A stretch of 64,000 nucleotides of DNA from Candidatus Tanganyikabacteria bacterium (GTDB lineage Bacteria > Cyanobacteriota > Sericytochromatia > S15B-MN24 > VGJW01), in assembly GCA_016867235.1 (NCBI GenBank), contig VGJY01000001.1, forward strand, positions 4,038 to 68,037. The letters are read 5' to 3'. A model generated the notes under the pieces. The model worked only from the letters and a program-made list of their open reading frames with translations. It ran no database searches and was not told the DNA's origin. The position numbers were made by a program, and so were the translations under genes. Position 1 is the stretch's first letter; each line of letters starts with the position of its first letter. Shown here piece by piece: positions 9,984 to 48,905 of the stretch.

Positions 9984-10679
9984 ATGCCTTCCGTGAGCCA
10001 GATCCTGCGTCAAACTCGGGAAGCCAAGGGCATCACCCTCGACGATGTCGCCCACAAGACCTACATCAAGCTGCCCTACCTGATAGCGCTCGAAGAAGGC
10101 CACATCGACCAGCTTCTCGCCCCGGTGTTCGTCTACGGCAACATCCGCCAGTACGCCCGGTTGCTGGGCCTCAATGCCGAAGAACTCGTGCTGCAGTACC
10201 AGCAGGAAGCCAGGCGCGAGCATCCGAAGCTGGCGGCGATGCCCGTGCTGTCGACCGCCGACGCCGACCTCGTGCGCATCCCGGTCTATGCCATGGCCGA
10301 GGCCGGAAACGGCAACGGCAACCTGCGCGCCGGCGCCAACGGCCATGCCGAGCCGGAGACCGGCTCCGTGCCCGCCGACGACGTCCTGCAGCCGATCACG
10401 GCCGCCGAAGTCCACCTGGTCGAAAGGAAGGTGTCAATGGAGCGCCCCCACCCCGTCGCCTTCCAGGGCTCCGACAAGGACGTCGCCGCCGCGCAGACCG
10501 AGGCGCAGCGCATCGTCGCCGAGGCGCAGCGGGAAGCCGACCGCCTCCGGCGGGACGCCGAGAAGTACGCCTTCCAGGTCCTGTCCGATCTGGAGGCCGA
10601 GCTGGGCCGCACCCTGGCCATCATCAAGAATGGCCGGCAGTACCTCCAGCAGCGCCGCCGCCAGCGCCCGGACGCCTGA
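9984..10679 (+). CDS. Helix-turn-helix domain protein (RodZ-like N-terminus, coiled-coil C-terminus)
   Basis: N-terminus LRQTREAKGITLDDVAHKTYIKLPYLIALEEGHIDQLLAPVFVYGNIRQYARLLGL matches the XRE/RodZ HTH module. TGcTAAAAT extended -10 about 55 nt upstream. Confidence 0.65.
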   Translation: MPSVSQILRQTREAKGITLDDVAHKTYIKLPYLIALEEGHIDQLLAPVFVYGNIRQYARLLGLNAEELVLQYQQEARREHPKLAAMPVLSTADADLVRIPVYAMAEAGNGNGNLRAGANGHAEPETGSVPADDVLQPITAAEVHLVERKVSMERPHPVAFQGSDKDVAAAQTEAQRIVAEAQREADRLRRDAEKYAFQVLSDLEAELGRTLAIIKNGRQYLQQRRRQRPDA

Positions 10680-10850
10680 TAGCGCAGCTCGCATGACTTC
10701 GCTCCGGCATGGCGGCCGGCACGGAGGCCGGCCCCACCCGCCGCATCGGTGGCGCAGGCCTCCGTGCCTGCGGCAGAGAGGCGCTAGGCCAATTGAGAAG
10801 CGCTGCTATGGCGTCGCCGGCTGCTTCGTTACGCCGCTGCCTCCCGGCCT
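10677..10850. repeat. Interspersed ~170-bp element, copy 1, containing a conserved stem-loop (GCACGGAGGCC...GGCCTCCGTGC)
   Basis: About 85% identical over >110 nt (weaker to ~170 nt) to the reverse complement of 40610-40786. Both copies begin exactly at a TGA stop (TGATAGCGC.GCTC...). Occupies the convergent gap between the HTH gene and flhG. Confidence 0.5.
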
Positions 10851-20449: not shown

Positions 20450-21025
20450 TTAAGGCTGGTTGCCTTGGTAGATATCCAGGACCCGGCGGACGAAGGCCTG
20501 GGTCTCGCGGTAAGGGGGGACGCCCTTGTGGCGGGACACGGCGTTTTCGCCGGCGTTGTACGCGGCCAGGCCCAGCGACAGGTCGCCGCCGAACTTGCCG
20601 ATCATCCGCTTGAGGTACTTGCCGCCCCCCGTCATGTTGTCGACCGGGTCGTAGGGGTTGCGCACGCCGTAATCCCGCGCCGTCTCGGGCATGAGCTGCA
20701 TGAGGCCCATGGCGCCCTTGTGGCTGCGCGATCGGGGATCGCCGCCGGATTCGACCCGGACCACCGCGGCCAGGAGCTTGGGGTCCATGCCGGACTTGCC
20801 GGCCGCCTTGGCGAGGGCGGCCGCGAAATCGTAGCTCTGGGTGCTGGCCTCGCCCGGGTCAATCTGATCGGGGCCGGCATCGCCAGGGGCATAGGATAGT
20901 CGGGTGGGGCCGGCCTCCGTGCCGGCCTCGGGAGGCCGCGGCGGAACGGGCGGTGGCACGAAACGGGCCTCGATCTCGCGGATCCGCGAGAGGATCTGGT
21001 CGAGGCCCGACGGCTCCAGGCTCAT
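20450..21025 (-). CDS. Lytic transglycosylase (SLT domain), flagellum-associated
   Basis: SLT catalytic region VVRVESGGDPRSRSHKGAMGLMQLMPETA...AAYNAG; located within the rod gene cluster. Confidence 0.8.
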   Translation of the reverse strand: MSLEPSGLDQILSRIREIEARFVPPPVPPRPPEAGTEAGPTRLSYAPGDAGPDQIDPGEASTQSYDFAAALAKAAGKSGMDPKLLAAVVRVESGGDPRSRSHKGAMGLMQLMPETARDYGVRNPYDPVDNMTGGGKYLKRMIGKFGGDLSLGLAAYNAGENAVSRHKGVPPYRETQAFVRRVLDIYQGNQP

Positions 21026-25143: not shown

Positions 25144-25217
25144 GAGAAAGGTTATCTCCGGGTTAAGAAAAGTTGAGGACGGCACCAAGGTGTGCGATAA
25201 ACAGATCAGTCTCGACC

Positions 25218-26630
25218 ATGAGCCCACGTTCCCTGATCGTCCTCCTAGCCGCTCTCCTGGCCGCCGCCTGCGGGCAGGCGCCGTCGGGCTCCGGGGGCGG
25301 CGGGTGGAGCTTGCCGCCATGGCCCGGCCAGGCGCCGCCCGACCGGCCCGAGGTGGTCACGGCTTTCCCCAGGGGCTTCATGTGGGGCGTTGCGACGGCC
25401 GGCCACCAGACCGAAGGGTACGACCAGACGTCGCAGTGGGCCAAGTGGGCCGCGGCGGGGCGCACCGCGCAGTTGCCGGGCCGGGCCACCGACTCGTGGC
25501 ACCGGTACCGCGAGGACTACGACCTGGCGAAGGGGATGGGCCTCAACTCGTTCCGGTTCTCTATCGAATGGGCCAAGGTCGAACCGCAGCGCGACCGGAT
25601 CGATCAGGCCGTGGTCGACCACTACGTGCGCGTGGTGGATGCCGCCCGGGAACGCGGCCTGGAGCCCATCGTGACGCTGCACCACTTCACGTACCCGGCG
25701 TGGCTCGACACCTACAAGCAGCCGACCGGCGGCTATCCCGGGTGGGAAGACGTCTATACCGCCCAGGAGTTCGCGGATTACTCCCGGCTCATGGCCCGGG
25801 TGCTGCGGGGCAAGGTCAAGTACTACGTGACGCTCAACGAGCCCAACATCCAGGCCATGCTGGGCTACCTGGCCGGCATCACGGTCCCGGGAAAGCGGAG
25901 CCGGGCGGCGTTCGGCAGCGTGCTCGAGAACTTCTCGCGGGGCCACGCCCTGGCCTACGACGCGATTCACGAGGAGGATCCGCAGGCCCTGGTCTCCACC
26001 AATCTCTTCCGGATGCTCAACGCCACGAATCCGTCCGCCGAATTCCCGGTGGACCCGGCCGAGGGCTTCATGGACGGGCTGTTCGGCTGGCGGGACGGCG
26101 CCAGTGCCCCGCTCATCAAGGTCGGTCCGGACGCGGAGCCGCCCAAGGGCCTGCGCAAGCTCGACTACGTGTCTTTCGACTACTACTTCGCCTACCGCTG
26201 GATGGAGGCGTTGCGGATCGCGACGCAATGGGACTGGCCGGTCGTTCCGGAAGGCATCTACACATCGCTCAGGTACTATCACGACCGCTACCACCTGCCG
26301 ATCCTGATAGCCGAGAACGGCATGGCGACCGAGGATGGCAAGCCTCGGCCCGACGGCTGGTCCCGGGAATCCTTCCTGGTCAACCACGTCTTCCAGGTCC
26401 GCAAGGCGGTCCTGGAGGGCGTCAAGGTCCTCGGCTACGTGCACTGGTCGCTGCTGGACAACTACGAGTGGGGCTCGTTCAAGCCGCGGTTCGGCCTGTA
26501 CCGGGTCGACTACGCCAAGCCGGACCTTCCCCGCATCCCGACCCCGGCGGTCGGCGTGTTCAAGCGCATCGCCGAGGCCAACGATCTGCCGGCCGATCTC
26601 GAAAAGCGCTACGTCGGAAAGAAAAACTGA
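25218..26630 (+). CDS. Glycoside hydrolase family 1 protein (beta-glucosidase-like), lipoprotein
   Basis: GH1 signatures FMWGVATAGHQTEG, TLNEPN (acid/base Glu), IAENGMA (nucleophile Glu) and HWSLLDNYEWG; lipobox LLAAACG. Confidence 0.8.
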   Translation: MSPRSLIVLLAALLAAACGQAPSGSGGGGWSLPPWPGQAPPDRPEVVTAFPRGFMWGVATAGHQTEGYDQTSQWAKWAAAGRTAQLPGRATDSWHRYREDYDLAKGMGLNSFRFSIEWAKVEPQRDRIDQAVVDHYVRVVDAARERGLEPIVTLHHFTYPAWLDTYKQPTGGYPGWEDVYTAQEFADYSRLMARVLRGKVKYYVTLNEPNIQAMLGYLAGITVPGKRSRAAFGSVLENFSRGHALAYDAIHEEDPQALVSTNLFRMLNATNPSAEFPVDPAEGFMDGLFGWRDGASAPLIKVGPDAEPPKGLRKLDYVSFDYYFAYRWMEALRIATQWDWPVVPEGIYTSLRYYHDRYHLPILIAENGMATEDGKPRPDGWSRESFLVNHVFQVRKAVLEGVKVLGYVHWSLLDNYEWGSFKPRFGLYRVDYAKPDLPRIPTPAVGVFKRIAEANDLPADLEKRYVGKKN

Positions 26631-26710
26631 CTCTCAACCTGAAACCAGCGGGCCGGTGCTTTCGTCCTAGATCACGCACGTAGTATCGTGCAAGCTTGCT
26701 TCGCACGCAC

Positions 26711-28129
26711 ATGAAAGATCTGTTTTCCGAACTCGTCGCCTACGTCTCGGCGCTCGGCCTGACTTTCGGCTCGCCGGCGTACGCGCCTGCTCCGCCGCAG
26801 GAGCCGCAGGCCCGCCCCGCGGCGGCGCTCGCCAGGCTGGGCGAGGACGGCCGCAGGCCCCTCTCGTACCTCGAGGCGCAGCGGACCATCCCGGTCGAGC
26901 CGGGCGCGGCGCTCCGGTTCCCGCGGGGCTTCATGTGGGGCGTGGCGGTGTCGGGTACCCAGGTGGAGGGCAACGACCACCACTCGAGCTGGGCGGCATG
27001 GGAACGCATGGGACGCACCCGCGAGCCCAAGGGCCTGGCTACCGCTTCCTGGGAGCGTTACGAAGAGGATCTCGCGCTTGCCGCCCGCACGGGGGCCACG
27101 GCCTTCCGGATGTCGGTCGAGTGGAGCCGGGTCGAGCCGCGCCCGGGCGAATTCGACCACGCGGCGCTGGCCCGCTACGCCTCGGTCGTGGCCACCGCGC
27201 GGCGCCTGGGCATCGAACCGGTCGTCACCCTTTACCATTTCGCGTATCCGGCCTGGCTGGAGGGCGGCTGGGAAAACGTGGCGGCGCCGGCGGCGTTCGC
27301 CCGCTACGTCGAGACCGTGGCGGCCGCGTTCCGCGGGAAGGTGCGCTACTGGATCACCATCAACGAGCCGAACCTCGAACCCGGGCTCGGCTACCTGGTG
27401 GGCGTCTTCCCGCCGGGGCGGATGAGCCCGCTGGCCTTCGCGCGAGCCACCGAGAGCATCCTGCGGGCGCACGTGGCGGCCTACGACGAGCTGCATCGCG
27501 CCGATCCGGGCGCGCTGGTGTCCACCAACGTCTTCCGGATGGTGCGGCGCCAGGGCCAGGAGACCGTCACCTGGCTGCCTGCGATGGAGCCGGGCGAGGT
27601 GATGATGGACAGGCTCGCCGCGTGGGTGGACGCGCCGGGCGCCCGGCCGCGCCGGACGCTGGACTACGTGGCGTTCGACTACTACTACGCGTTCACCCTT
27701 CCGGAGTTCTTCCAGCTTGCCGATTACTGGCGGTGGCCGGTACACCCCCCCGGAATCTACGACGCGGCCCGCTACTACCATGACAGGTACCGGTTGCCGG
27801 TGCTCGTGGCCGAGAATGGCATGGCCGAGCAGCGCCGCCAGGTCCGCCCTGACGGCTGGACGCGCGAGGCGTTCCTGGTCAACCACGTCTACGAGTTGCA
27901 GCGGGCAGCCGCCGAGGGCGTGCCGGTGCTCGGCTACTTCTACTGGTCGCTGATGGACAACTACGAGTGGGGCTCCTACACGCCGACCTTCGGGCTGTAC
28001 CGGGTGGATCGCGACGATCCGCTCCTGCGGCGCAAGCCCACGCAGGCCGCCGACGTTTACCGGCGCATGGCTCGCGACAACGGCATCCCGGGAGATCTCC
28101 TCGACAGGTATCTCTACCGGCGATCGTGA
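26711..28129 (+). CDS. Glycoside hydrolase family 1 protein, tandem paralog
   Basis: Same motif set (FMWGVAVSGTQVEG, TINEPN, VAENGMA, YWSLMDNYEWG); paralogous to the upstream gene. Confidence 0.8.
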   Translation: MKDLFSELVAYVSALGLTFGSPAYAPAPPQEPQARPAAALARLGEDGRRPLSYLEAQRTIPVEPGAALRFPRGFMWGVAVSGTQVEGNDHHSSWAAWERMGRTREPKGLATASWERYEEDLALAARTGATAFRMSVEWSRVEPRPGEFDHAALARYASVVATARRLGIEPVVTLYHFAYPAWLEGGWENVAAPAAFARYVETVAAAFRGKVRYWITINEPNLEPGLGYLVGVFPPGRMSPLAFARATESILRAHVAAYDELHRADPGALVSTNVFRMVRRQGQETVTWLPAMEPGEVMMDRLAAWVDAPGARPRRTLDYVAFDYYYAFTLPEFFQLADYWRWPVHPPGIYDAARYYHDRYRLPVLVAENGMAEQRRQVRPDGWTREAFLVNHVYELQRAAAEGVPVLGYFYWSLMDNYEWGSYTPTFGLYRVDRDDPLLRRKPTQAADVYRRMARDNGIPGDLLDRYLYRRS

Positions 28130-38381: not shown

Positions 38382-38476
38382 TGGGCACGGCTTGCCGTCC
38401 TTCACGCAGGCAGGCAGCCGCCCGCCATCGTGACGCTTTTCGTAGGTTCCCCGCGGGCGGGGATAGCGTGTTAGGA
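38382..38476. repeat. ~95-bp direct repeat, copy A (flanks the COG1373 ATPase gene; overlaps its last 6 nt)
   Basis: About 85% identical to 40011-40105 in the same orientation; contains the CCCCGCGGGCGGGG hairpin. Confidence 0.6.
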
Positions 38477-39802
38477 GCCGGACCCTGCACCTCTGGCCGC
38501 GCCGTCGAGCAGGAAGCGCCAGGCAGGAGTCACCTCGATTCGCCGGCCTTCGCTCTCGAGAACCTCCTGCTCGCTCCACGTCACCACGGTTGCCGCCTTG
38601 GCCTCCACCTCGCGCATCGCCTCCCCGAGGGCCGCCAACTCGCGCTTGCGAGTCGCCCGGTCCGCCAACGACTGGCTGACTTGGACGAGTGCGGGGACGC
38701 GACCGCGATCCGGTATCGCGAAGTCCACTTCGCGGCCCGTCCGGGTCCGGTAGTAGCGGATCTCGGAGTGCCGGCGCCGCAGCGCCATGAATACCAGGTT
38801 TTCGAGGAGGTGGCCCGAGTTGACGAGGAGCCCTGACGTCACCGACGTGACCAGGGAGTGGTCAACGCAGTAGATCTTCTTCGGGTTGGCGAGGCTCCTG
38901 GTCAGCGAGGCGTCGTGGAGACGCACGGTGAACAGGAAGTATGCATCCTCGAACCACTCCAGGTACTCGGAGACCGCGGCCTTGGGTGCCCTGTGCCCGA
39001 GAGCCTTGAGATGCCCGGTGAGACCGTTGATGGAGTAAAGCGACCCCGCGTTGTCGATCAGCCAGTAGGCCAGATCCGTCAGAGCCTTGGGGTGAGAGAT
39101 GTCGTGGCGTTCGATCAGGTCCCTGAACAGGATCGCGTTCAGGTAGTCCTGGTGGGTGGCGATCCGCAGATCGCGCCGCAGTCCGGCTACCTCGGGAAAT
39201 CCCCCCTCGGCCCAGTAGCGCTCGAAGGCGTCCTGCACCAGCAGCCTGCCGCGTGTGGAGAGGGCTTCTCCGGCCGGCACGCCCGCGAATCTCAGGTATT
39301 CCCGGAAAGAAAACGGGAACAGCTCCCAGGACAGGGCACGGCCACGCATCTGCGTGGCGACTTCCTTCGACAGGAGCTTCGCCGACGAGCCGGTCAGGTA
39401 GATCTGGCACTTCTCGGTGCGCAAGAGCCGGTCGATGAAGGGCTCCCAGCCCGGCACCATCTGGATCTCGTCGAAGAAGCAGTGGACGGTCTCGGTATCC
39501 TTCTTCGCCGGATAGAGGCCGAAGTAGGCCTCGACGATCGCGCCGAGGTCGTCGTGCCGCATACCGTGAAGGCGGTCGTCGAAGAAGTTGAGGTACAGGA
39601 TGTTCTCGCGAGGCACATCGCGGGCGAGCAAGCCATGCATGACCTGGGACAGGTAGGTCGACTTGCCGCACCGGCGAACGCCCACCAGGACGGTGGCCTT
39701 GCCCGGGACAGGTGCCACCTGCAACTCCCTCGGAACGCCCGGCTCCAGACGACCATCCTGAGAATCCAGGATGAGCGCCTTGAGCATCTCGACGAGGGAC
39801 AT
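38471..39802 (-). CDS. AAA+ ATPase of the COG1373 family (AAA_14 + DUF4143)
   Basis: Walker A VGVRRCGKST; conserved COG1373 architecture; 443 aa. Confidence 0.8.
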   Translation of the reverse strand: MSLVEMLKALILDSQDGRLEPGVPRELQVAPVPGKATVLVGVRRCGKSTYLSQVMHGLLARDVPRENILYLNFFDDRLHGMRHDDLGAIVEAYFGLYPAKKDTETVHCFFDEIQMVPGWEPFIDRLLRTEKCQIYLTGSSAKLLSKEVATQMRGRALSWELFPFSFREYLRFAGVPAGEALSTRGRLLVQDAFERYWAEGGFPEVAGLRRDLRIATHQDYLNAILFRDLIERHDISHPKALTDLAYWLIDNAGSLYSINGLTGHLKALGHRAPKAAVSEYLEWFEDAYFLFTVRLHDASLTRSLANPKKIYCVDHSLVTSVTSGLLVNSGHLLENLVFMALRRRHSEIRYYRTRTGREVDFAIPDRGRVPALVQVSQSLADRATRKRELAALGEAMREVEAKAATVVTWSEQEVLESEGRRIEVTPAWRFLLDGAARGAGSGS

Positions 39803-40010: not shown

Positions 40011-40105
40011 TGGGCACGGTCGGCCGTCCTTCACGCAGGCAGGCGACCGCCTGGCATCGTGACGTTTTTCGTAGATTCCCCGCCGGCGGGGCTGGCGTGT
40101 AAAGA
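40011..40105. repeat. ~95-bp direct repeat, copy B
   Basis: Matches 38382-38476. Confidence 0.6.
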
Positions 40106-40221
40106 TTGATGTGAATTCACCGCCGGTGTTGAGAATCTCTCTCAACAAGCCCCTCGAATGTGTCGTAGTGTCACTTTCGAGGTTAACTTAACCTTTCGGG
40201 TCGTGATGGGCCTGGACCGAC

Positions 40222-40473
40222 CTATCGGGCGCCATCTCGGGGGGCGACCCAGAATGGCGGTGTCCTTCCTGTGCGAGAGACAAGCACGCGTCCGACCCCG
40301 CCGCGTAACGCGGTCTTGATGCGCTTCGCCATCGGCTCGCGCTGCGGGGTCCTCCAGCGGTCGGTGAAAACGCACGGCAGAACCTGCTCGAAGCCCAGGT
40401 CCCGTCGCGCCTGCTCGACCTTGTGGTAGGTCGAGCAGGCGCGACGTCCACGACGACGAGCCATGTCCCGAAG
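40222..40473 (-). pseudogene. Possible gene remnant encoding a basic 83-aa peptide (MARRRGRRACSTYHKVEQARRDLGFEQ...)
   Basis: ORF with atypically low GC3 and rare CGT codons for this genome, inside a degenerate segment between repeats; no confident homology. Confidence 0.2.
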
Positions 40474-40609
40474 CTCACCATCGGATGCGTAGCGCCTGGA
40501 GCGGGGGACCACCTTGGAGCCAGTCTCGCAGGCGGACGGCGTGGTGATCCAGGTGGGCCGCAAGGGGGCGTTCCTCGCCTCCCCACGGCGTGGGCCTCTG
40601 CAGCGCCTC

Positions 40610-40786
40610 GGTCCGCCCGGGGAAGGGGTCGCCAAGCACTTGCTTGATGGCGCCTCATAGCGGCGCTCAAATGACCTGGCGCCTATCGGACGCAGGCACG
40701 GAGGCCTGCGCCACCGATGCAACGGGTGGGGCCGGCCTCCGTGCCGGCCGCGATGCCGGAGCGAAGTCATCAGAGCCGCGCTATCA
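40610..40786. repeat. Interspersed ~170-bp hairpin-containing element, copy 2 (inverted relative to copy 1)
   Basis: Reverse complement aligns to 10677-10850; begins at the TGA stop of the 66-aa ORF (40784-40786). Confidence 0.5.
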
Positions 40787-40984
40787 GTAGAGCGATCCCG
40801 CCCGGCCTGCGGCCGCGAAGATCTTCCGCCGGGCGGCGGCGATGTCCTTGGCGTCGATGTAGTCCAGGGAGTCGGCGCCTTTCCTGATCTCCTCGGCGAC
40901 GTCACGGAGTGTGGACCCGACGGGCGTCTTGAGCCGTCCCTGGTACTTCGCCAGGTACCTGAGCATCCGGTCCTGGTTGCGCAT
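40784..40984 (-). CDS. Hypothetical small protein (66 aa)
   Basis: ORF with protein-like composition immediately downstream of the second COG1373 ATPase; no family assignment. Confidence 0.4.
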   Translation of the reverse strand: MRNQDRMLRYLAKYQGRLKTPVGSTLRDVAEEIRKGADSLDYIDAKDIAAARRKIFAAAGRAGSLY

Positions 40985-41131
40985 CTTGGCACCGATGAGA
41001 TCCCGGGAAACCGGGATGGAAAGAGGACCCTGTCTACCGACCCCAGCGAGGTCGCAATGACGGGCACCCCTTCACTCATTGACCCTTGCTTGGTTATCTT
41101 TTCCCCGGCCAAGGCGCGACAAAGCAGATCC

Positions 41132-42400: not shown

Positions 42401-42426
42401 TACCGACAGTTCTCGAGACGAGAGTC

Positions 42427-42518
42427 CACAGTATCCGAAGATCCAAGTCTACAGTTACCGACCGATTCAGTCTACGGTTTCCGAGCGAACCGGTCAACAA
42501 CTTCCGAGGATGCCAATC
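42427..42518. repeat. Four tandem 23-bp direct repeats (consensus tACAGTTtCCGAnnnannnaGTC) in the divergent region between the COG1373 ATPase and the alpha-2-macroglobulin gene
   Basis: Motif starts at 42428, 42451, 42474 and 42497 with exact 23-bp spacing. Confidence 0.5.
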
Positions 42519-42686
42519 GGGCTCGCCTAGCCACCGCCGTCTGTCGAGGTCGGAGCGGGGCCTGGCATCCAGGGGATTCGACGCTGCATCCGACAGTCTG
42601 AAACTTTGCTCGCAAGCAATCCGGTCTAAGATGCATTAGCCAGCCAGGTCGGGTTGGTTGGCCTTGAGAGACAGGCGGGACTCGAA

Positions 42687-45600
42687 ATGTCGCATGCATC
42701 CCGGAATGCTCGGCGCGCGCGTTTTCTGGCAATCGGCGCCGCGATCGCCGCGGTCGGCCTGGCGGCCGGCCTCGCCCTCTGGAGTCCCCACGGGACGGCG
42801 GCTCCCACCCCCGGCAAATCGCCCGAAGTGCACCTCAAGCTCGACGATCGCTGGAAGCTGGTAGACAAGCTCATCGAGGAGCAGAAGTTCGAGGCGGCGG
42901 CCAAGGAGGTCCGGGGCATCCTGACCGCGGCCAAGGCGACCGGGGACCAGGCGCAGTGGACCCGCGCGCTGATCCGCGAGGTGCAGTTGCGCATGGGGTT
43001 GCACGGCTACGAGACCGCCGTCCGTTTCCTCAAGGAAGAGCCGTGGCCCGAGGCGCCGTTGCACCGGACGACGCTGAACCTGTTCTACGGCCACGCGCTC
43101 GTGCAGTACGCGCAGGCCTATGCATGGGAAATCGGCAAGCGCGAACGCGTCGCCGCCGCGGGGCCGGTGGACCTCAAGAAGTGGACCCGGGAACAGATAC
43201 ACGACGCGGCGGCGGCGGCATACGCCCACGCGTGGCGGGATCGGGTCGCGCTGGGGCGCGAGCCTGTGGGGCGGCTGGCCGAATACCTCTCGCCAAACGA
43301 CTATCCGGCCGGCATCCGCGGGACCTTGCGCGATGCGGTCACCTACCTGTTCGTCGAGTTGCTGGCGAACTCGGGCGGGTGGACGCCCGAGCAGGCAAAC
43401 GACCTGTTCAGGCTGCCGCTCGCCGACCTCATCGCCGGCGACCCGGGCAAGTCGGCGGCAATCGACCCCGCCAACCCCGCGGTGCATCCGCTCCTGCGCG
43501 TCGGGGCGCTCCTCGACGATCTCGAGAGCTGGCACCGCGAGCGGCGGAGCGCCGAAGGTGCCCTGGAGGCGCGGCTCGAGCGCTTGCGCCGGCTGCACGC
43601 CGCTTTCGATCTGCCCGCCGACCGCGAGCGGATCACCGGGCACCTGCGCCAACGCCTGCCGGCGTTCCGGGGCGTGCCGTGGTGGAGCATGGGCATGGCG
43701 ACGCTCGCCGAGTTCGTGCAGGCCGAACCGGTCGCCGATAACCTGGTGCGGGCCAGGCAGATCGCGATCGAGGGCCAGCGAGCCTACCCCGATTCGGTCG
43801 GCGGGCAGCGCGCCAACCACATCGCCCGGCGCATCGAGGCGCCCGACTTCCAGGTGACGGCCATGGCGGCCGACGGGCCCGGTCGGCGGAGTGTGCTGGT
43901 CAGCCACCGCAATCTGCCCGAGTTGCACTTCCGGGCGTATCCGGTCGATTTCGAGGCGCGCCTGGCCAGGACCGTGGAGAGCGGCCTCCTGCCGAGCTAC
44001 CGCGATCTCGAGCAGATCGTCCGGGGGCAGAAGCCCGCGCACGCCTGGCGGGTGAAGCTCCCCGCGACGCCCGACTTCAAGGACCATCGCACCTTCGTCA
44101 CGCCGCCCATGGCCAGCCCGGGCGTGTATGTGGTGGCCGCCTCGGCGCGCGCGGATTTCGGCTCCGGGGACAACCGGGTGATGGCGGTCAACGTCAACGT
44201 CACGGACCTGGTCATGCTGTCCCGGGAAGACGGTGAGGGCGGTTTGGCGGTCACCGTGCTGTCGGGCCGGACGGGCAAGCCGGTCGCCGGGGCGACCGTG
44301 TCCCTGTACCGCTACTCCTGGCGCAAGCCGCCAGAGCGCATGCGCCGCGACCGCACCGGTGAGGACGGCGAGGCGGCCTTCCCGTGGCAGTCGCGGGAAG
44401 ATGTCGGCGAGTCGAAGTTCCTGGTGGGGCGGCTGGGAGAGCACCTGGCGCTCGACCAGAGCTATTTCTCGCTCTACAAGCCTTCGGCTCCCACCGAGTC
44501 GGATGCCGCGCTGATCTACACGGATCGGAGCATCTACCGGCCCGAGCAGGAAGTGCGCTTCAAGATCGTGGCGTTCCGCGGCCGCGGCGACCAGGCCCGG
44601 TACCGCACGCTGCCGGGCCGCGACCTGCGGGTGTCGCTCTACGACGCCAACGGCCAGGAGGTGGACGGGAAGAAGGTCCGTACCAATCGCTACGGCACGG
44701 CTTCCGGCATTTTCCGCGTACCGGCCGGCCGCGCGCTCGGCCAGTGGCATGTCGCCACGTCGGTCGGCGGCTCGCAGTACGTGCGCGTCGAGGAGTACAA
44801 GCGGCCGACTTTCGAGGTCAAGCTCGAGGATCCCGAGGCCGCGTTGCGGCTCAACAAGCCGGCGACGGTGGCGGGCACGGCGCGCTACTACTTCGGCCTG
44901 CCGGTCACTGCCGGGAGCGTGCGCTGGCGCGTCACGCGCGAACCGGTGTATCCCTGGTGGTGGGACTGGGACTGGTGGGGAGCGGGCCAGGGGCGGTCCG
45001 GGGCGCAGGCCATCGCCGGGGGCACGGCGACGCTGGGCGCGGACGGCAAGTTCAAGTTCACCTTCACGCCCGAGGCGGACGAGCGCGCGGCCAAGGGCCT
45101 GTCATACCGGTACGCGGTGGCGGCCGACGTGACCGACGAGGGCGGCGAGACGCGATCCGCCGACCGGGCCTTCCGGCTCGGCACGGTGGCGATCGAGGCC
45201 GCATTTCGCACCGACGCGGCCTTCTTCCGGCCCGACGCCACCGGCGCGATCGTCGTCACCCGCACCGATCTGGACGGCGTTCCGCGGGCGGGAAAGGGCT
45301 CCTGGCGCCTGATCGCCCTGCGGCAGCCCGCCGCGGCGACATTGCCCGCCGACATGTCCCGCACGGCCGGTCCCGCGGCCGACGGGTCCGAGCAGGCGGG
45401 CGACACCGAGGAGGCGGACGGCGAGGCCGATCCGGACGAGCCGGGCGAGACCTCGGCCGGACCGGGTGCGCCGCTGACCAAGGGCGACCGGTTGCGAGCG
45501 CGCTGGGAGACGGGCTACGGCGCCGAGGCCGCGTTGCGGCGCTGGGCGGATGAAAAGCAGCTTTCCCGGGGCGACCTGGCGCACGGCGCCGACGGCGAGG

Positions 45601-48600
45601 CCCGGGTGGCGATCGAGGGCCTGGCGCCCGGCGCCTACCGCCTCCGCTACCGCACCGAAGATCCGTACGGCGCGACCTTCGAGGCGGCCAGGGAATTCGT
45701 GGTCGCGGGCGCGCCGATGGCCCTGCCGGCCGTGCTCATGGCCGAGCATTCCGCCGTGCCCGTCGGCGGCACGGCGCGGATCCTGGTGGCTTCGGGGCTC
45801 CCGGACCAGGTCCTGCTCTTCGATCTCTACAAGGCGGGCAAGCTCGTGCGCCGGCAGCGGCTGGCTTCCGGCCGCGAACGGCACGTCGTCGAGATCCCCG
45901 TGGGCGAGGGGGACCGCGGCGGCTTCGGCGTGAAGCTGACGGTCCTGCGCGATCACCAGCTCATGACCTTGACGCAGGCGGTCTTCGTCCCGTGGGACGA
46001 TAAGCAGCTCCAGGTGTCGTTCTCGACTTTCCGCGACAAGCTCCGGCCGGGCGGGCGCGAGACATGGAAGGTTACGGTCAAGGGGCCGAAGGGCGCGCCG
46101 GTGGAAGCCGGCGGGGCCGAACTGCTGGCCTACATGTACGACCGCAGCCTCGACCTCTTCGCACCCCACGCGCCCGCCGACCCCCTGGCCCTTTACCCCA
46201 ACCGCACGGGCGTTTCATGGGCGCGGGCCAGCCTGGGGAGCGTGTCGCCGCAGTGGCTCTGGAGCGATTTCGCCGGGTTGCCCTACTACCCGTCGCTCTC
46301 GGGCGATCGGCTGATCTTCTTCGACAGCTACGGCATCGGCGGCCCGGGGTACCGCCACGGCGGCTACCGGCTGCGATCGGCCATGCCGATGGCGCCGGCC
46401 CCGGCCGGCGCGCCCGCGATGGAGGCGGCCGACCGCATGGAGCAGGCGCCGGCCCGGAAGGCGGAGAGCCGCAGCGACCGGAACGGGGAGGACGAGCGCA
46501 AGTCGACCGAGGGCGACAAGACCAAGGGGTTTGGCGTGGCGTCCGGGCGCGGCCAGGCCGAGGGTCCGCAACCGGCGCCGCTGCGGAGCAACTTCGCCGA
46601 GACGGCTTTCTTCCAGCCCCACCTCGAGGTGGACGAGGACGGCGCCGTCGGCTTCGAGTTCGAGGTGCCCGATTCGGTCACCGCCTGGAACGTGTGGGTC
46701 CACGCGATCACCGCCGACCTGAAGGGCGGCGCGGTGCGCAAGGAGGCCCGGAGCGTCAAGGACCTGATGGTGCGGCCGTACATGCCGCGCTTCCTGCGCG
46801 AGGGGGACAAGGCCGAGTTGCAAGTGGTGGTCAACAACGCCACCGACAAGCCGCTGACCGGCCAGGTGACGCTGGACATCGTCGATCCCGACTCGGGCGC
46901 CAGCATCCTGGGCGAGTTCGGTCTGGCGGGAGCGAAGCCGCTCGCATTCAAAGCCGCCGCCAAGGGATCGGGCAAGGTCTCCTTCCCGATCGCCGCCCCG
47001 AAGCGAGTACGGCCGGCGGCATTCAAGGTGGTGGCCCGGGCGGGCGACGATTCGGACGGCGAACTGCGGCCCCTGCCGGTGCTCCCGGGCCGGATGCATC
47101 TGGCCCAGTCCCGGTTCGTGACGCTGCGCGACGTCGAGAAGCGGGACATGGTCTTCGCGGACATGGCCGCGGCCGGCGCGGATCCGAGCCTGGTGCACGA
47201 CTCGCTCGTCGTCACCGTGGATGCGCAACTCTTCTACCAGGTGCTCGAAGCGTTGCCGTACCTCATCGAGTACCCGTACGAGTGCACCGAGCAGACCATG
47301 AATCGCTTCGTCTCGACGGGCATCGTGTCCTCGGTCTTCGAGCAGTTCCCGGCGATCGGGAAGATGGCGGCCGAGTTCGCGAAACGCGAGACGCAGTACG
47401 CCTCTTGGGCCGACGACGACCCCAACCGCAAGCTGACGCTCGAGGAGTCGCCATGGCTGCGCATCGCCAGGGGCGGCAGCGGCCAGGACAAGGGCCTGGC
47501 GAAGATCCTCGATCCGCGCATCGCGCGGGCCACCCGCGACACCTCTCTGGCCAAGCTCCGGCAGGCGCAACTGCCGTCGGGCGCCTTCCCCTGGTGGGCC
47601 GGCGGCCCGCCGTCGCCCTACATCACGCTCTACCTGATGCACGGCTTCGCCAAGGCGGTCGAGTTCCAGGTGGACGTGCCCAAGGACGTGGTACAGCGCG
47701 GCTGGAACTACCTGGCCGACGAGGTCCGCAGGGACATGCAATGGGCCTTCGCGCACGACTGCTGCTGGGAGTTCTTGACCTTCGTGAACTACGTGGCGAG
47801 CTCGTATCCCGACCAGTCCTGGACCGGCGATGCGCTCACCGCCAAGGAGCGCAAGCAGATACTCGACTTCAGCTTCCGGCACTGGAAGCGCCACTCGCCC
47901 TACCTCAAGGGCTACCTCGCCCTCACGCTCAAGCGCATGGGCAGGCCAGCGGACGCGAAACTGGTCTGGGACGGCGTGATGGATTCCGCGAAGACCACCC
48001 GCGACGAAGGCACCTCGTGGGCGCCCGAGGATCGCGCGTGGCTCTGGTACAACGACACGATCGAGACCCACGCGTACGCCCTGCGGACGCTCATGGAACT
48101 CGAGCCGCGAGACGCCCGGCGCGACGGCATCGTCCAGTGGTTGCTGCTCAACAAGAAGCTCAACCACTGGAAGAGCACCCGCGCGACGGCCGAGGTCATC
48201 TATTCGCTGGTCCACTATCTCAAGGCCGAGAAGCAACTGGGCATCCCGGAGCACCTGGCGGTGCAGGTCGGCCCGCGCTCGCAGGAGTTCCGCTTCGATC
48301 CCGAGAAGTACACGGGCAAGAAGAACCAGGTCGTGGTGCCGGGCGCAGAGGTCGACCCGAAGACCATGCACAAGGTCGTCGTCTCGAAGACGACGAAGGG
48401 CTTCGCCTTCGCCTCGGCGACCTGGCACTATTCCACCGAGAAGCTCCCGGCGGCCGACCGGGGTGATCTGCTCGGCGTCAACCGGAGCTACTTCCGGCGC
48501 GAGCACACGTCCGGAGGGTGGGTGCTGCGGCCATTGCAGGAGGGAACCAAGGTAGCCGTGGGCGACCAGGTGGAAGTGCACCTGTCCATCCGGGCCCGGC

Positions 48601-48905
48601 ATCCGGCCGAGTACGTCCACCTGCGCGATCCGCGGCCGGCGGGCTTCGAGCCAGACTCGCAGCTCTCGAAGTGGAAGTGGGATCTGGGGTTGGCCTGGTA
48701 CGAAGAGATCCGCGACAGCGGGACCAACTTCTTCTTCGAGGCCCTGCCCCAGGGCGAGTACACGCTCAAGTACCGCCTGCGCGCCGCCATGCCCGGCACC
48801 TTCCGGGTCAGCCCGGCAACGCTCCAGTCGATGTACGCCCCCGAGTTCAACGCCTTCTCGGCGGGAACCATCGTCGGCGTCGCCGGGTCGGGAGATCAGC
48901 AATAG
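42687..48905 (+). CDS. Bacterial alpha-2-macroglobulin family protein (~2070 aa) with thioester motif
   Basis: Thioester site EYPYECTEQTM; MG/A2M domain organisation; N-terminal signal/anchor MSHASRNARRARFLAIGAAIAAVGLAAGLALW. Confidence 0.85.
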   Translation: MSHASRNARRARFLAIGAAIAAVGLAAGLALWSPHGTAAPTPGKSPEVHLKLDDRWKLVDKLIEEQKFEAAAKEVRGILTAAKATGDQAQWTRALIREVQLRMGLHGYETAVRFLKEEPWPEAPLHRTTLNLFYGHALVQYAQAYAWEIGKRERVAAAGPVDLKKWTREQIHDAAAAAYAHAWRDRVALGREPVGRLAEYLSPNDYPAGIRGTLRDAVTYLFVELLANSGGWTPEQANDLFRLPLADLIAGDPGKSAAIDPANPAVHPLLRVGALLDDLESWHRERRSAEGALEARLERLRRLHAAFDLPADRERITGHLRQRLPAFRGVPWWSMGMATLAEFVQAEPVADNLVRARQIAIEGQRAYPDSVGGQRANHIARRIEAPDFQVTAMAADGPGRRSVLVSHRNLPELHFRAYPVDFEARLARTVESGLLPSYRDLEQIVRGQKPAHAWRVKLPATPDFKDHRTFVTPPMASPGVYVVAASARADFGSGDNRVMAVNVNVTDLVMLSREDGEGGLAVTVLSGRTGKPVAGATVSLYRYSWRKPPERMRRDRTGEDGEAAFPWQSREDVGESKFLVGRLGEHLALDQSYFSLYKPSAPTESDAALIYTDRSIYRPEQEVRFKIVAFRGRGDQARYRTLPGRDLRVSLYDANGQEVDGKKVRTNRYGTASGIFRVPAGRALGQWHVATSVGGSQYVRVEEYKRPTFEVKLEDPEAALRLNKPATVAGTARYYFGLPVTAGSVRWRVTREPVYPWWWDWDWWGAGQGRSGAQAIAGGTATLGADGKFKFTFTPEADERAAKGLSYRYAVAADVTDEGGETRSADRAFRLGTVAIEAAFRTDAAFFRPDATGAIVVTRTDLDGVPRAGKGSWRLIALRQPAAATLPADMSRTAGPAADGSEQAGDTEEADGEADPDEPGETSAGPGAPLTKGDRLRARWETGYGAEAALRRWADEKQLSRGDLAHGADGEARVAIEGLAPGAYRLRYRTEDPYGATFEAAREFVVAGAPMALPAVLMAEHSAVPVGGTARILVASGLPDQVLLFDLYKAGKLVRRQRLASGRERHVVEIPVGEGDRGGFGVKLTVLRDHQLMTLTQAVFVPWDDKQLQVSFSTFRDKLRPGGRETWKVTVKGPKGAPVEAGGAELLAYMYDRSLDLFAPHAPADPLALYPNRTGVSWARASLGSVSPQWLWSDFAGLPYYPSLSGDRLIFFDSYGIGGPGYRHGGYRLRSAMPMAPAPAGAPAMEAADRMEQAPARKAESRSDRNGEDERKSTEGDKTKGFGVASGRGQAEGPQPAPLRSNFAETAFFQPHLEVDEDGAVGFEFEVPDSVTAWNVWVHAITADLKGGAVRKEARSVKDLMVRPYMPRFLREGDKAELQVVVNNATDKPLTGQVTLDIVDPDSGASILGEFGLAGAKPLAFKAAAKGSGKVSFPIAAPKRVRPAAFKVVARAGDDSDGELRPLPVLPGRMHLAQSRFVTLRDVEKRDMVFADMAAAGADPSLVHDSLVVTVDAQLFYQVLEALPYLIEYPYECTEQTMNRFVSTGIVSSVFEQFPAIGKMAAEFAKRETQYASWADDDPNRKLTLEESPWLRIARGGSGQDKGLAKILDPRIARATRDTSLAKLRQAQLPSGAFPWWAGGPPSPYITLYLMHGFAKAVEFQVDVPKDVVQRGWNYLADEVRRDMQWAFAHDCCWEFLTFVNYVASSYPDQSWTGDALTAKERKQILDFSFRHWKRHSPYLKGYLALTLKRMGRPADAKLVWDGVMDSAKTTRDEGTSWAPEDRAWLWYNDTIETHAYALRTLMELEPRDARRDGIVQWLLLNKKLNHWKSTRATAEVIYSLVHYLKAEKQLGIPEHLAVQVGPRSQEFRFDPEKYTGKKNQVVVPGAEVDPKTMHKVVVSKTTKGFAFASATWHYSTEKLPAADRGDLLGVNRSYFRREHTSGGWVLRPLQEGTKVAVGDQVEVHLSIRARHPAEYVHLRDPRPAGFEPDSQLSKWKWDLGLAWYEEIRDSGTNFFFEALPQGEYTLKYRLRAAMPGTFRVSPATLQSMYAPEFNAFSAGTIVGVAGSGDQQ

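Follow-up and report, generated by a model that had tools for sequence, protein, structure and literature searches.

We analysed a 64-kb stretch of a Candidatus Sericytochromatia genome (the window) and identified a short repeated element that is most likely a MITE-like non-autonomous transposon. The element is non-coding, carries terminal inverted repeats and an apparent 3-nt duplication at its flanks, and occurs in dispersed copies that are present at some loci and absent from orthologous ones. It would probably be mobilized in trans by a DDE transposase of the IS5 superfamily, an enzyme that we infer. The start of both window copies at a stop codon appears, judged from sequence, to be a target-site duplication of transposition.

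Results

A near-palindromic repeat with terminal inverted repeats

Copy A (10677-10811, + strand) and copy B (40786-40655, − strand) align with 88% identity over 129 nt. The corresponding arms (10676-10804 and 40659-40787, 129 nt each) are 88% complementary, and 0.00 chance matches are expected in the window for a 22-mer of the repeat. The two-copy repeat described in an earlier note is therefore real, and its observation of unrelated flanks, which argues against a segmental duplication, holds on both sides of A and B. The weaker similarity that it traced out to ~170 nt was not recovered: the alignment ends with a unit that measures 126 nt in B and 129 nt in A, with a 3-nt triplet on either side. 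We regard the sequence as a dispersed repeat and not a gene duplication, in agreement with the note, whose candidates included an intergenic repeat or insertion sequence remnant.

Both copies open with CTGATAGCGC(A/G)GCTC right at an in-frame TGA (Table 1). The imperfect 11-nt terminal inverted repeats are complementary at 9 of 11 positions (TAGCGCGGCTC and GAGCGCCGCTA), the arms are ~70–75% palindromic overall, and the whole element is a near-palindrome. Its end positions are set by five identical copies (B and four from metagenomes) in differing flanks, where divergence begins exactly outside T(G/C)A...TGA. The element has no transposase coding capacity: its open frames give only homologue-free peptides, and a search of 5.8 billion proteins with the open-frame peptide returned no homologue. 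No further sites resembling the terminal inverted repeats were found in the window. Copy A lies between convergent genes immediately 3′ of a stop codon, and is flanked by flagellar and cell-shape genes in conserved synteny.

Table 1 Coordinates of the element, its hairpin units and its host gene remnants in the window
Feature	Position	Strand	Description
Copy A, putative left target triplet TGA	10677..10679	+	Doubles as native-position stop of the RodZ-like HTH gene (9984..10679)
Copy A, core	10680..10808	+	129 nt, older and diverged; 88% identical to B
Copy A, terminal inverted repeats	10680-10690, 10798-10808		TAGCGCAGCTC, AAGCGCTGCTA
Copy A, centre	10714..10772		Two 25-nt REP-like hairpin units, head to head, 9 nt apart
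Copy A, unit 1	10738-10714	−	GGTGG GGCCGGC CTCCGT GCCGGCC
Copy A, unit 2	10748-10772	+	GGTGG CGCAGGC CTCCGT GCCTGCG
Copy A, putative right target triplet	10809..10811	+	Now reads TGG through decay; from here the empty orthologous site is again homologous, in exact register
Solo short hairpin unit	20901..20930	−	30 nt; 29/30 identical to the left-arm unit of copy B; distinct from the 126-nt element
Cas1 pseudogene, downstream part	40478..40654	−	Same frame (GAIKQVLGDPFPGRTE), in-frame deletion of ~95 aa, Cas1 C-terminus (...LRIRW)
Copy B, putative right target triplet TGA	40655..40657	−	Cas1 frame runs on straight after
Copy B, core	40658..40783	−	126 nt, young; base-identical to metagenome copies L023–L026 (L025, L026: first 121 nt)
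Copy B, terminal inverted repeats	40783-40773, 40668-40658		TAGCGCGGCTC, GAGCGCCGCTA
Copy B, hairpin units	40725-40749, 40715-40691	+, −	
Copy B, putative left target triplet TGA	40784..40786	−	Closes the 66-aa ORF; opposite a conserved Trp of Cas1 homologues
Cas1 pseudogene, upstream part	40787..41065	−	~residues 941–1022 of RT-Cas1 protein P0173; includes the 66-aa ORF 40784..40984

Identical copies in metagenome contigs

A metagenome scan yielded four more copies that are base-identical to B, on contigs of two JGI samples (L023, L024, L025 and L026) where the flanking sequences are unrelated, bringing the known copies to six. One sequence is thus found at five places, and copy A has diverged from it by 12%. 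Sites outside the window comprise two transposase genes that the element interrupts, a position ahead of a gene start and one 15 nt beyond a TAG stop. In L025, the element lacks its final 5 nt and the flank contains a direct duplication of 18 nt; in L026, the right side is cut off by the contig end. Logan contigs with the two neighbouring genes break off 37 and 25 nt inside the element, as is expected of a multi-copy repeat, and one SRA run carries the element junctions. Viral contigs gave no match to the left-arm 18-mer, and a full-text literature search found no paper describing the element sequence.

Empty and restored sites

The case for mobility rests on four sites that are either empty or can be restored by removing the element. 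(i) L029, the closest syntenic orthologue of the copy A locus (82% amino acid identity), lacks the element, and the window is longer by exactly the core plus 3 nt. The HTH orthologue of L029 ends with a stop (TAG) at the position homologous to the TGA of copy A, and the best local match beyond (window 10816-10845 to L029 1642-1670; score 33 versus 18.7 ± 2.9 for shuffles) starts 7 nt past the triplet in both sequences. (ii) Once the core and one TGA are taken out of L023, the frame of an IS1182/IS5-like transposase is open again over 548 aa; its translation from the first Met, a 525-aa protein, has a single DDE_Tnp_1 match, at 292–492, that spans the junction. (iii) A similar removal from L025 reopens the frame of an IS630-type transposase, which then runs without a stop for 392 aa or, counted from the first Met, 376 aa. 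(iv) Removal of the core and one TGA from copy B leaves a gap-free, colinear alignment with RT-Cas1 in which the TGA codon is opposite a conserved Trp.

A gain of 3 nt is accordingly observed at three independent sites (L023, copy A versus L029 and copy B versus Cas1). A TA duplication of the IS630 type was rejected, since the L023 frame is kept only by removing the core plus 0 or plus 3 nt and the L029 and Cas1 comparisons both need +3. Copy A is absent at all orthologous loci from L029 to L033. The same spacer lacks the element in four related genomes, where it is 28–90 nt long; treated as decayed older copies, these spacers gave alignment scores no better than shuffles.

The 66-aa ORF, which the earlier note had taken for the gene upstream of copy B, proved to be a piece of a Cas1 pseudogene in which TGA replaces the conserved Trp. 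The upstream part of this pseudogene shows 66% identity to RT-Cas1 (E 8e-27) and scores above the Pfam threshold for Cas_Cas1, and the downstream part shows 82% identity (E 7e-20); a Cas2 remnant was not confirmed by Pfam. Copy B would be a recent insertion at a TGA within a Cas1 gene that was already decaying. Such an insertion requires a prior TGG to TGA mutation of the Trp codon, which counts against the transposon reading.

Target triplet and stop codons

The flanks read C-TGA...TGA-G in copy B and L023, G-TGA...TGA-G in L024 and C-TCA...(TCA-G) in L025. TGA is thus found on both sides of three identical copies (B, L023 and L024) and TCA at the left of two (L025 and L026), with the context of the duplicated triplet being C-T(G/C)A-G. 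TGA and TCA are the only triplets seen among the six copies, against a background of 63–68% GC, and are compatible with either T-S-A or T-N-A. Since the two triplets are reverse complements of each other and the element looks alike on both strands, the triplet seen depends on orientation. The right flank of the copies with TCA at left is uninformative (L026 truncated at the contig end, L025 anomalous), so that duplication and the insertion of an element-borne TGA beside T(G/C)A are not strictly separated.

The claim that the element starts exactly at a TGA stop is borne out for both window copies, which lie at an in-frame TGA, but a link to translation termination is not, as TGA and TCA are non-stop triplets elsewhere. 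The four further copies did not extend the pattern: only two of the six have an in-frame TGA at the element start, and one of these (copy B) is not a native stop. Starts at stop codons would arise because a TGA stop is itself a possible target triplet that is duplicated on insertion. The left duplicate of a TGA stop would keep the gene intact, so that such insertions survive selection.

We propose that a transposase encoded elsewhere binds both ends of the element and integrates it at a T(G/C)A triplet, by preference in the palindromic context C-T(G/C)A-G, via 3-nt staggered cuts, and that gap repair then copies the triplet to both sides. Copy A would be an old insertion of this kind at the TGA stop of the RodZ-like HTH gene. 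The 3-bp duplication of a T-N-A-type triplet, found here in a C-TNA-G-like context, makes a DDE transposase of the IS5/PIF-Harbinger superfamily the most likely enzyme: NuwaII targets C-TNA-G with a 3-bp duplication (PMC4482050), and the IS1031 group has a three-nucleotide insertion site (PMC2516522). Neither the window nor the metagenome and orthologue loci examined yielded an autonomous insertion sequence that shares these termini, and the ends of the IS1182/IS5-like host of the L023 copy are unrelated to those of the element. Transposase families in Pfam gave no match among the scanned window ORFs, that is, all except flagellar-cluster ORFs at 13.2–20.4 and 23.0–24.1 kb and a few short ORFs.

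Central hairpin units and their wider family

The central 25-nt units consist of a GGTGG or GGTAG head, a 7-bp GC stem and a CTCCGT or GTCCCT loop. The stems of the two units of copy A differ at two positions, each of which is compensated inside its own arm, and this suggests a hairpin-recognising single-strand mechanism over a classical DDE mechanism. Five units occur in the window, one of them intragenic: the solo unit lies within an SLT-domain gene (20450..21025) and codes for EAGTEAGPTR in a Pro-rich linker, which around EAGTEAGPT is too variable among SLT orthologues to show an insertion.

In other phyla, the unit family is plentiful (46 units in 22 loci versus ~1 expected). A base-identical unit recurs in MAGs from no fewer than six distant lineages, namely Planctomycetota, Acidimicrobiia, Limnocylindrales, Acidobacteriota and several Desulfobacterota-type orders. 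In one Planctomycetota MAG, a 45–46-nt doublet of units resides in frame inside housekeeping genes, among them those for 2-oxoglutarate dehydrogenase E1 and ValRS, and is always read VGPASVPAGRDAGPT. BLAST against plasmids gave just two matches, each of 30 nt, both to the short unit and both from Rathayibacter, and a full-text literature search did not turn up this sequence, or the peptide that it encodes, in any relevant context. The central hairpins thus belong to a cross-phylum REP-like family. The unit might further be a hairpin-specific mobile motif that spreads horizontally on a pan-bacterial scale, with the 126-nt element as its REPIN-like vehicle rather than an ordinary DDE-type MITE, a tentative reading that we consider unlikely; the motif would then combine a REP-like form with RPE-like tolerance within proteins and use a putative mobilizing enzyme.

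We also weighed whether the element is itself REPIN-like and owes its mobility to an HUH/Y1 transposase that acts on single strands (RAYT or IS200/IS605-type). The two inverted hairpins would then form its core, insertion would take place 3′ of T(G/C)A without duplication, and the right TGA would be the element's own. The build of the two units (GGTGG head, 7-bp stem, CTCCGT loop), the compensated stem differences and the abundance of the family in other phyla agree with this proposal, as does the resemblance of the variant GGTAG heads to the GTAG head of REPs, and the sequence data fit an element-borne TGA as well as a duplicated one. The left triplet, however, is TGA or TCA beside an otherwise identical interior, which needs target degeneracy if the target is strand-specific and is natural if the triplet is duplicated. 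Moreover, DDE elements typically have a symmetric C...G context and inverted repeats that reach the very ends, as seen here, no Y1_Tnp match was obtained among the scanned window ORFs, and five units per 64 kb is far below REP densities. We therefore consider this mode of transposition quite improbable and retain the MITE-like transposon as the preferred reading.

Folding and host function

The whole element, and not its centre alone, folds as one long imperfect hairpin with a folding energy of −83 to −88 kcal/mol. Of the stem-loop described earlier (~11 bp with a ~30-nt loop), the stem is indeed shared by both copies, with 12 bp (GGCACGGAGGCC/GGCCTCCGTGCC), but the loop comprises only 9 nt because CCACC/GGTGG and more pairs lengthen the stem. 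Compared with shuffled sequences, copy B reaches z = −4.4 and copy A z = −1.1, no better than shuffles. Covariation between A and B was not found in these two sequences, whose differences lie in bulges.

Such a very stable, GC-rich hairpin, which in copy A sits directly 3′ of a stop codon between convergent genes, could be a host-selected structured RNA or 3′-end element at gene ends, i.e. an intrinsic terminator, an mRNA-stabilising hairpin or a small RNA. We find this very improbable. Against the terminator family suggested in the earlier note, neither copy contains or adjoins a T-tract or terminator-like site. The small RNA that it also listed has no Rfam match even at permissive thresholds (nothing at gathering thresholds; sole noise match MIR5534, E = 0.58), and no promoter features were found at the element. 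The copy A spacer is without the element in the four relatives, other copies break transposase genes or the Cas1 pseudogene or precede a gene start, copy A does not fold better than its shuffles, and no covariation links A and B. The central GC-rich hairpins may have an incidental effect on mRNA 3′ ends; nothing points to a selected host function.

Segmental duplication, gene conversion or an assembly artefact limited to this contig would suit a metagenome-assembled genome with just two full copies in the window, but has next to no probability in view of the unrelated flanks, the identical copies in four other contexts in independent assemblies, the junctions in the SRA run and the divergence of copy A, which is unlike an artefact. 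An integron attC-type recombination site following gene cassettes is exceedingly improbable too: the imperfect palindrome, the attC-like length and the starts at ORF ends fit, but RYYYAAC and GTTRRRY cores are absent from the sequence, the scanned window ORFs contain no integrase, copies lie within genes with a 3-nt duplication, and the neighbours of copy A are syntenic genes and not cassettes.

Discussion

The element resembles the bacterial MITEs derived from the IS5 superfamily (IS5 and IS1031-type; relatives of PIF/Harbinger-Nuwa) in being short, non-coding and bounded by inverted repeats, in folding into one hairpin, and in its dispersed multi-copy occurrence, its 3-bp duplication of the T-N-A type and its entry into intergenic DNA and mobile elements. 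It differs from them in that two REP-like units take the place of a deleted transposase gene in the interior, in that only TGA and TCA triplets are seen, and in that no parent was found in the loci examined.

With the REPINs and REPs of Pseudomonas, Enterobacteria and Stenotrophomonas, which are associated with RAYT, it shares two inverted palindromic units, a 5′ head beside a GC-rich hairpin, a longer hairpin formed by the whole, and stems that covary between units. In contrast to these, the head is GGTGG or GGTAG and not GTAG, 3 nt are gained at insertion, density is low, copies lie in genes, and no RAYT was found among the scanned window ORFs. To our knowledge, REPINs make no target duplication.

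Terminator-like pneumococcal repeats (SPRITE; PMC10969869) and mRNA-stabilising REP hairpins are likewise stable stem-loop repeats at gene 3′ ends, whereas the element described here has no U-tract, is not conserved and is not confined to 3′ ends. Rickettsia palindromic elements (RPE) are mobile palindromes that persist in frame within protein-coding genes (PMC10969869). The short 45–46-nt doublet of the Planctomycetota MAG and the solo unit in the SLT gene are similar in being intragenic. The 126-nt element, in contrast, has TGA-TAG at its edge and breaks the genes in which it lands, and no tolerated in-frame insert of it was found; the intragenic habit is that of the short unit, mostly in other genomes.

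The element is an ordinary kind of selfish DNA, and what is new is its occurrence in an uncultured relative of Cyanobacteria. For annotation, it accounts for an apparent 3′-end motif, a spurious 66-aa gene and contig breaks in the assemblies of this lineage. By its position in a decayed RT-Cas1 adaptation gene, copy B marks a CRISPR locus that is being lost, and the wider REP-like family, which tolerates in-frame residence in essential proteins, is open to systematic study. A MITE that most likely was recently active is thereby documented in Sericytochromatia, the uncultured non-photosynthetic sister class of Cyanobacteria, and would illustrate cleanly how a transposon can settle at gene ends without damage when its target triplet is also a stop codon.

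A palindromic repeat with fixed ends

The hairpin repeat described in the earlier note was recovered in both window copies, with positions 10676-10804 and 40659-40787 forming 129-nt arms that are 88% complementary and with 0.00 chance matches expected within the window for the central 22-mer of the element. Both copies start with CTGATAGCGC(A/G)GCTC at an in-frame TGA, which is the stop codon of an HTH_25/RodZ-like gene (231 aa, 9984..10679, plus strand) for copy A and the end of a 66-aa ORF (40784..40984, minus strand) for copy B. The entire element, not merely its central 12-bp stem, folds as a single long imperfect hairpin on either strand. The weaker similarity previously extended to 170 nt is not real: the likeness between the copies stops ~130 nt from the TGA. 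Copy A (Table) is an older copy, and copy B is a young one.

A metagenome scan with the left-arm motif of the element retrieved four contigs (L023-L026) from two samples (Ga0194119 and Ga0194120), each carrying a copy with base-for-base identity to copy B. Because these identical copies have unrelated flanks, the boundaries of the unit are fixed. The 126-nt core, TAGCGCGGCTC...GAGCGCCGCTA, ends in terminal inverted repeats with 9 of 11 positions matched, and its arms are ~70-75% palindromic overall. Copy B, L023 and L024 are flanked by TGA...TGA, the left triplet of L025 and L026 is TCA, and counting one further base per side gives C|T(G/C)A|G at the insertion sites. Since the two triplets are reverse complements, this pattern is explained by a near-symmetric element entering the same double-stranded triplet in either orientation.

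Empty and restored insertion sites

The window belongs to a Candidatus Sericytochromatia MAG. The HTH -> <- flhG <- flhF synteny is kept in four related genomes, whose HTH-flhG spacers (28-90 nt) lack the element; a fifth locus has an additional gene between HTH and flhG. In L029, the closest relative (82% protein identity), the spacer finds its best local match in the window segment past copy A. The register is exact, both sequences lying 7 nt beyond the triplet, and the score is 33, whereas shuffles average 18.7 +/- 2.9 and 1 in 1000 of them scores as high. When the core of copy A is deleted, the window retains exactly three extra bases relative to L029. A reading of the relatives' spacers as decayed copies was rejected by alignment. 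From its stop codon, the empty site of L029 (1635-1643) reads TAGCGCGGC, the same 9 nt with which the element begins (TAGCGCGGC...); this resemblance to the terminus is absent from the other insertion sites, and overall similarity is not significant. The likeness is probably due to chance; an insertion preference for end-like sequences may also account for it.

The element splits an IS1182/IS5-like transposase gene in L023, where removal of the core and one TGA gives a 548-aa stop-free frame, and the restored protein (525 aa from the first Met) has a single DDE_Tnp_1 match (292-492) across the junction. Removal from an IS630-type transposase gene in L025 likewise gives a frame of 392 aa free of stops (376 aa when read from its first Met). 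The L023 frame is restored only by removing core + 0 or core + 3 nt, and the L029 and Cas1 comparisons require +3 nt; these results exclude an IS630/mariner-type duplication of TA.

The L025 copy (about 686-841, locus coordinates) is missing 5 nt at the end of its core. In their place, and rather than a simple 3-nt duplication, it has 18 nt of the left flank directly duplicated (GGTGCTTTGGATCCCTCA), after which come the expected TCA and flank. Aberrant repair, following either insertion or an attempt at excision, may have produced this copy. The L026 contig ends at core position 121, where the L025 core also stops, as an assembly-graph branch from an L025-type variant would produce.

Copy B interrupts a Cas1 pseudogene

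The 66-aa ORF, previously taken as the gene upstream of the repeat, is a Cas1 fragment according to phmmer, Pfam and tblastn. In an exhaustive phmmer search its 66 residues match internal segments of far larger proteins, the best being an RVT_1 + Cas_Cas1 fusion (RT-Cas1) and the others Cas1 (Pfam). The two tblastn matches (Table) share one frame, and with the core and one TGA removed the alignment is gap-free across the insertion point (...GRAGSLY-X-GAIKQVLGDPFPGRT versus ...GRAGALY-W-GALKRVLGKRFPGRT in RT-Cas1). The 'stop' of copy B is thus a TGA replacing a conserved Trp codon (TGG) of Cas1. Farther along, an in-frame deletion of ~95 aa has removed the catalytic part, and copy B thus lies in a decaying Cas1 gene. 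Given the youth of copy B and the TGA at each of its ends, the simplest history is that TGG had first become TGA in the pseudogene and that the element then inserted into the resulting CTGAG target.

Neither an RT domain nor a CRISPR array was seen near the pseudogene, and the locus resembles a CRISPR adaptation module in the course of being lost. Overlapping the Cas1 stop is a putative Cas2 remnant (~40140-40480, minus strand; MVSFGTWLVVVDV..., past a frameshift ...KVEQARRDLGFEQVLPCVFTDRW), for which Pfam gave no confirmation; it contains a perfect 16-bp palindrome (40443-40406, CGCGCCTGCTCGACCT-ACCACA-AGGTCGAGCAGGCGCG).

Table. Features of the window
Feature	Position	Strand	Description
Copy A core	10680-10808		129 nt; 12% diverged; flanks TGA...TGG
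Solo short unit	20901-20930	-	third match in the window; 30 nt, 29/30 identical to left-arm unit of the element
GH1 paralogues, tandem pair	25173-26630 and 26696-28129		glycoside hydrolase family 1; origin of D1 and D3, two direct repeats of the scan
Direct repeat pair	38382-38476 and 40011-40105		95 nt, 85% identity; flanks AAA_14/DUF4143 ATPase gene 38471..39802
Decayed RT-Cas1-type Cas1 gene	40478-41065	-	N-terminus absent, C-terminus intact
Cas1 match 1	41032-40787	-	RT-Cas1 residues 941-1022, 66% identity, E 8e-27 (tblastn)
Cas1 match 2	40612-40478	-	RT-Cas1 residues 1135-1179, 82% identity, E 7e-20 (tblastn)
23-nt tandem repeat	42423-42484		2.7 copies, AGTCTACAGTTTCCGACAGATCC

Insertion at stop codons

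That the repeat starts at an in-frame TGA holds for both window copies, but the triplet is the target and its duplication, not a termination signal. In-frame TGA is found at two of six copies, one being the pseudogene nonsense codon; two others lie in transposase genes, one shortly before a ribosome-binding site and start codon, and one 15 nt past a TAG stop. Under a crude gene model, the window has 222 non-disruptive T(G/C)A sites, of which 16 are stop codons, and 17 CT(G/C)AG sites, of which 2 are; insertion on a stop is therefore a minority outcome, harmless because the left duplicate keeps the stop. Two copies in six on stops exceeds expectation only mildly.

A short hairpin unit shared across phyla

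Each arm of the element contains a 25-nt unit made up of the head GGTGG, a stem of 7 bp and the loop CTCCGT. Between the arms the stem differs (GGCCGGC versus CGCAGGC) at two positions, both with compensation inside the arm concerned. Its 21-mer is not element-specific: a genome scan found 22 loci (L001-L022), 16 in one Planctomycetota MAG (DASXUX01) and the others in five further distant lineages. They hold 46 units versus ~1 expected, with heads (GGTGG or GGTAG) and loops (CTCCGT/GTCCCT) fixed and 7-bp stems covarying. Examples lie in L003 near 1142, L005 near 6668 and L020 near 7406. The unit is a cross-phylum, REP-like family, of which no published description was found in the literature.

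In the Planctomycetota MAG, a 45-46-nt unit doublet lies in frame in long ORFs and is always translated as VGPASVPAGRDAGPT or the equivalent from the other strand. In a 2-oxoglutarate dehydrogenase E1 the doublet falls where the protein has 11 residues more than its solved homologues, and in ValRS it falls within a variable loop. This in-frame behaviour recalls that of Rickettsia palindromic elements (review PMC10969869). The solo unit of the window lies inside a flagellar-cluster SLT-domain (lytic transglycosylase) gene (20450..21025) and encodes EAGTEAGPTR in a variable Pro-rich N-terminal linker, where orthologue comparison gave no insertion signal either way.

Likely mechanism of transposition

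The element is short and non-coding, has inverted repeats to its very ends, and combines a fixed 3-nt gain with a palindromic target; this anatomy matches a MITE moved in trans. The duplication resembles the 3-bp T-N-A type, often C|TNA|G, characteristic of the IS5/PIF-Harbinger superfamily, as described for NuwaII (C|TNA|G; PMC4482050), and the IS1031 group of the IS5 family has a three-nucleotide insertion site (PMC2516522). Since this duplication characterises the superfamily, a putative DDE transposase belonging to it is favoured, which would act in trans on the element. We consider it improbable that a hairpin-recognising HUH enzyme drives REPIN-like transposition, with the right TGA borne by the element and adjoining a T(G/C)A target: the interior is REP-like, and duplicated and element-borne TGA predict identical sequences for informative copies, yet three features argue against it, namely that TGA and TCA alternate in copies otherwise the same in sequence, that the target context is symmetric, and that unit density is low.

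The dispersed, IS-derived repeat favoured here was among the candidates of the earlier note; its terminator and small RNA did not survive. No terminator-like or sigma-70-like site occurs within or beside either window copy, and no Rfam family matches, permissive thresholds included. Copy A folds no better than shuffles (z = -1.1), copies A and B show no compensatory changes between them, and relatives do not conserve the element. Among the Pfam-scanned window ORFs (all except the flagellar-cluster ORFs at 13.2-20.4 kb and 23.0-24.1 kb and a few short ORFs) there was no transposase or integrase, and the window has no further site with the termini of the element. No partner element was found there or in the other loci retrieved.

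Other repeats and wider significance

The 95-nt direct repeat holds a hairpin, CCCCGCC(C/G)GCGGGG, is unrelated to the element and matches no Rfam family; it might mark another boundary, of a mobile element or a cassette, or be a regulatory region that the two sites share. The L026 copy of the element has a third homologue of the GH1 type (47-53% aa identity) beside it. The 23-nt tandem repeat lies in an AT-richer spacer upstream of a bacterial alpha-2-macroglobulin gene (2083 aa, 42654..48905).

Assemblers typically break contigs at multi-copy repeats. Among Logan contigs of run SRR7985589, that of the HTH gene (L027) stops 37 nt into copy A and that of the 66-aa ORF (L028) 25 nt into copy B; these breaks at both window loci are practical evidence that the element fragments assemblies of the Sericytochromatia lineage. 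MITEs are a known kind, to which the element adds a member in an under-studied lineage, and the cross-phylum hairpin unit is a lead worth following.
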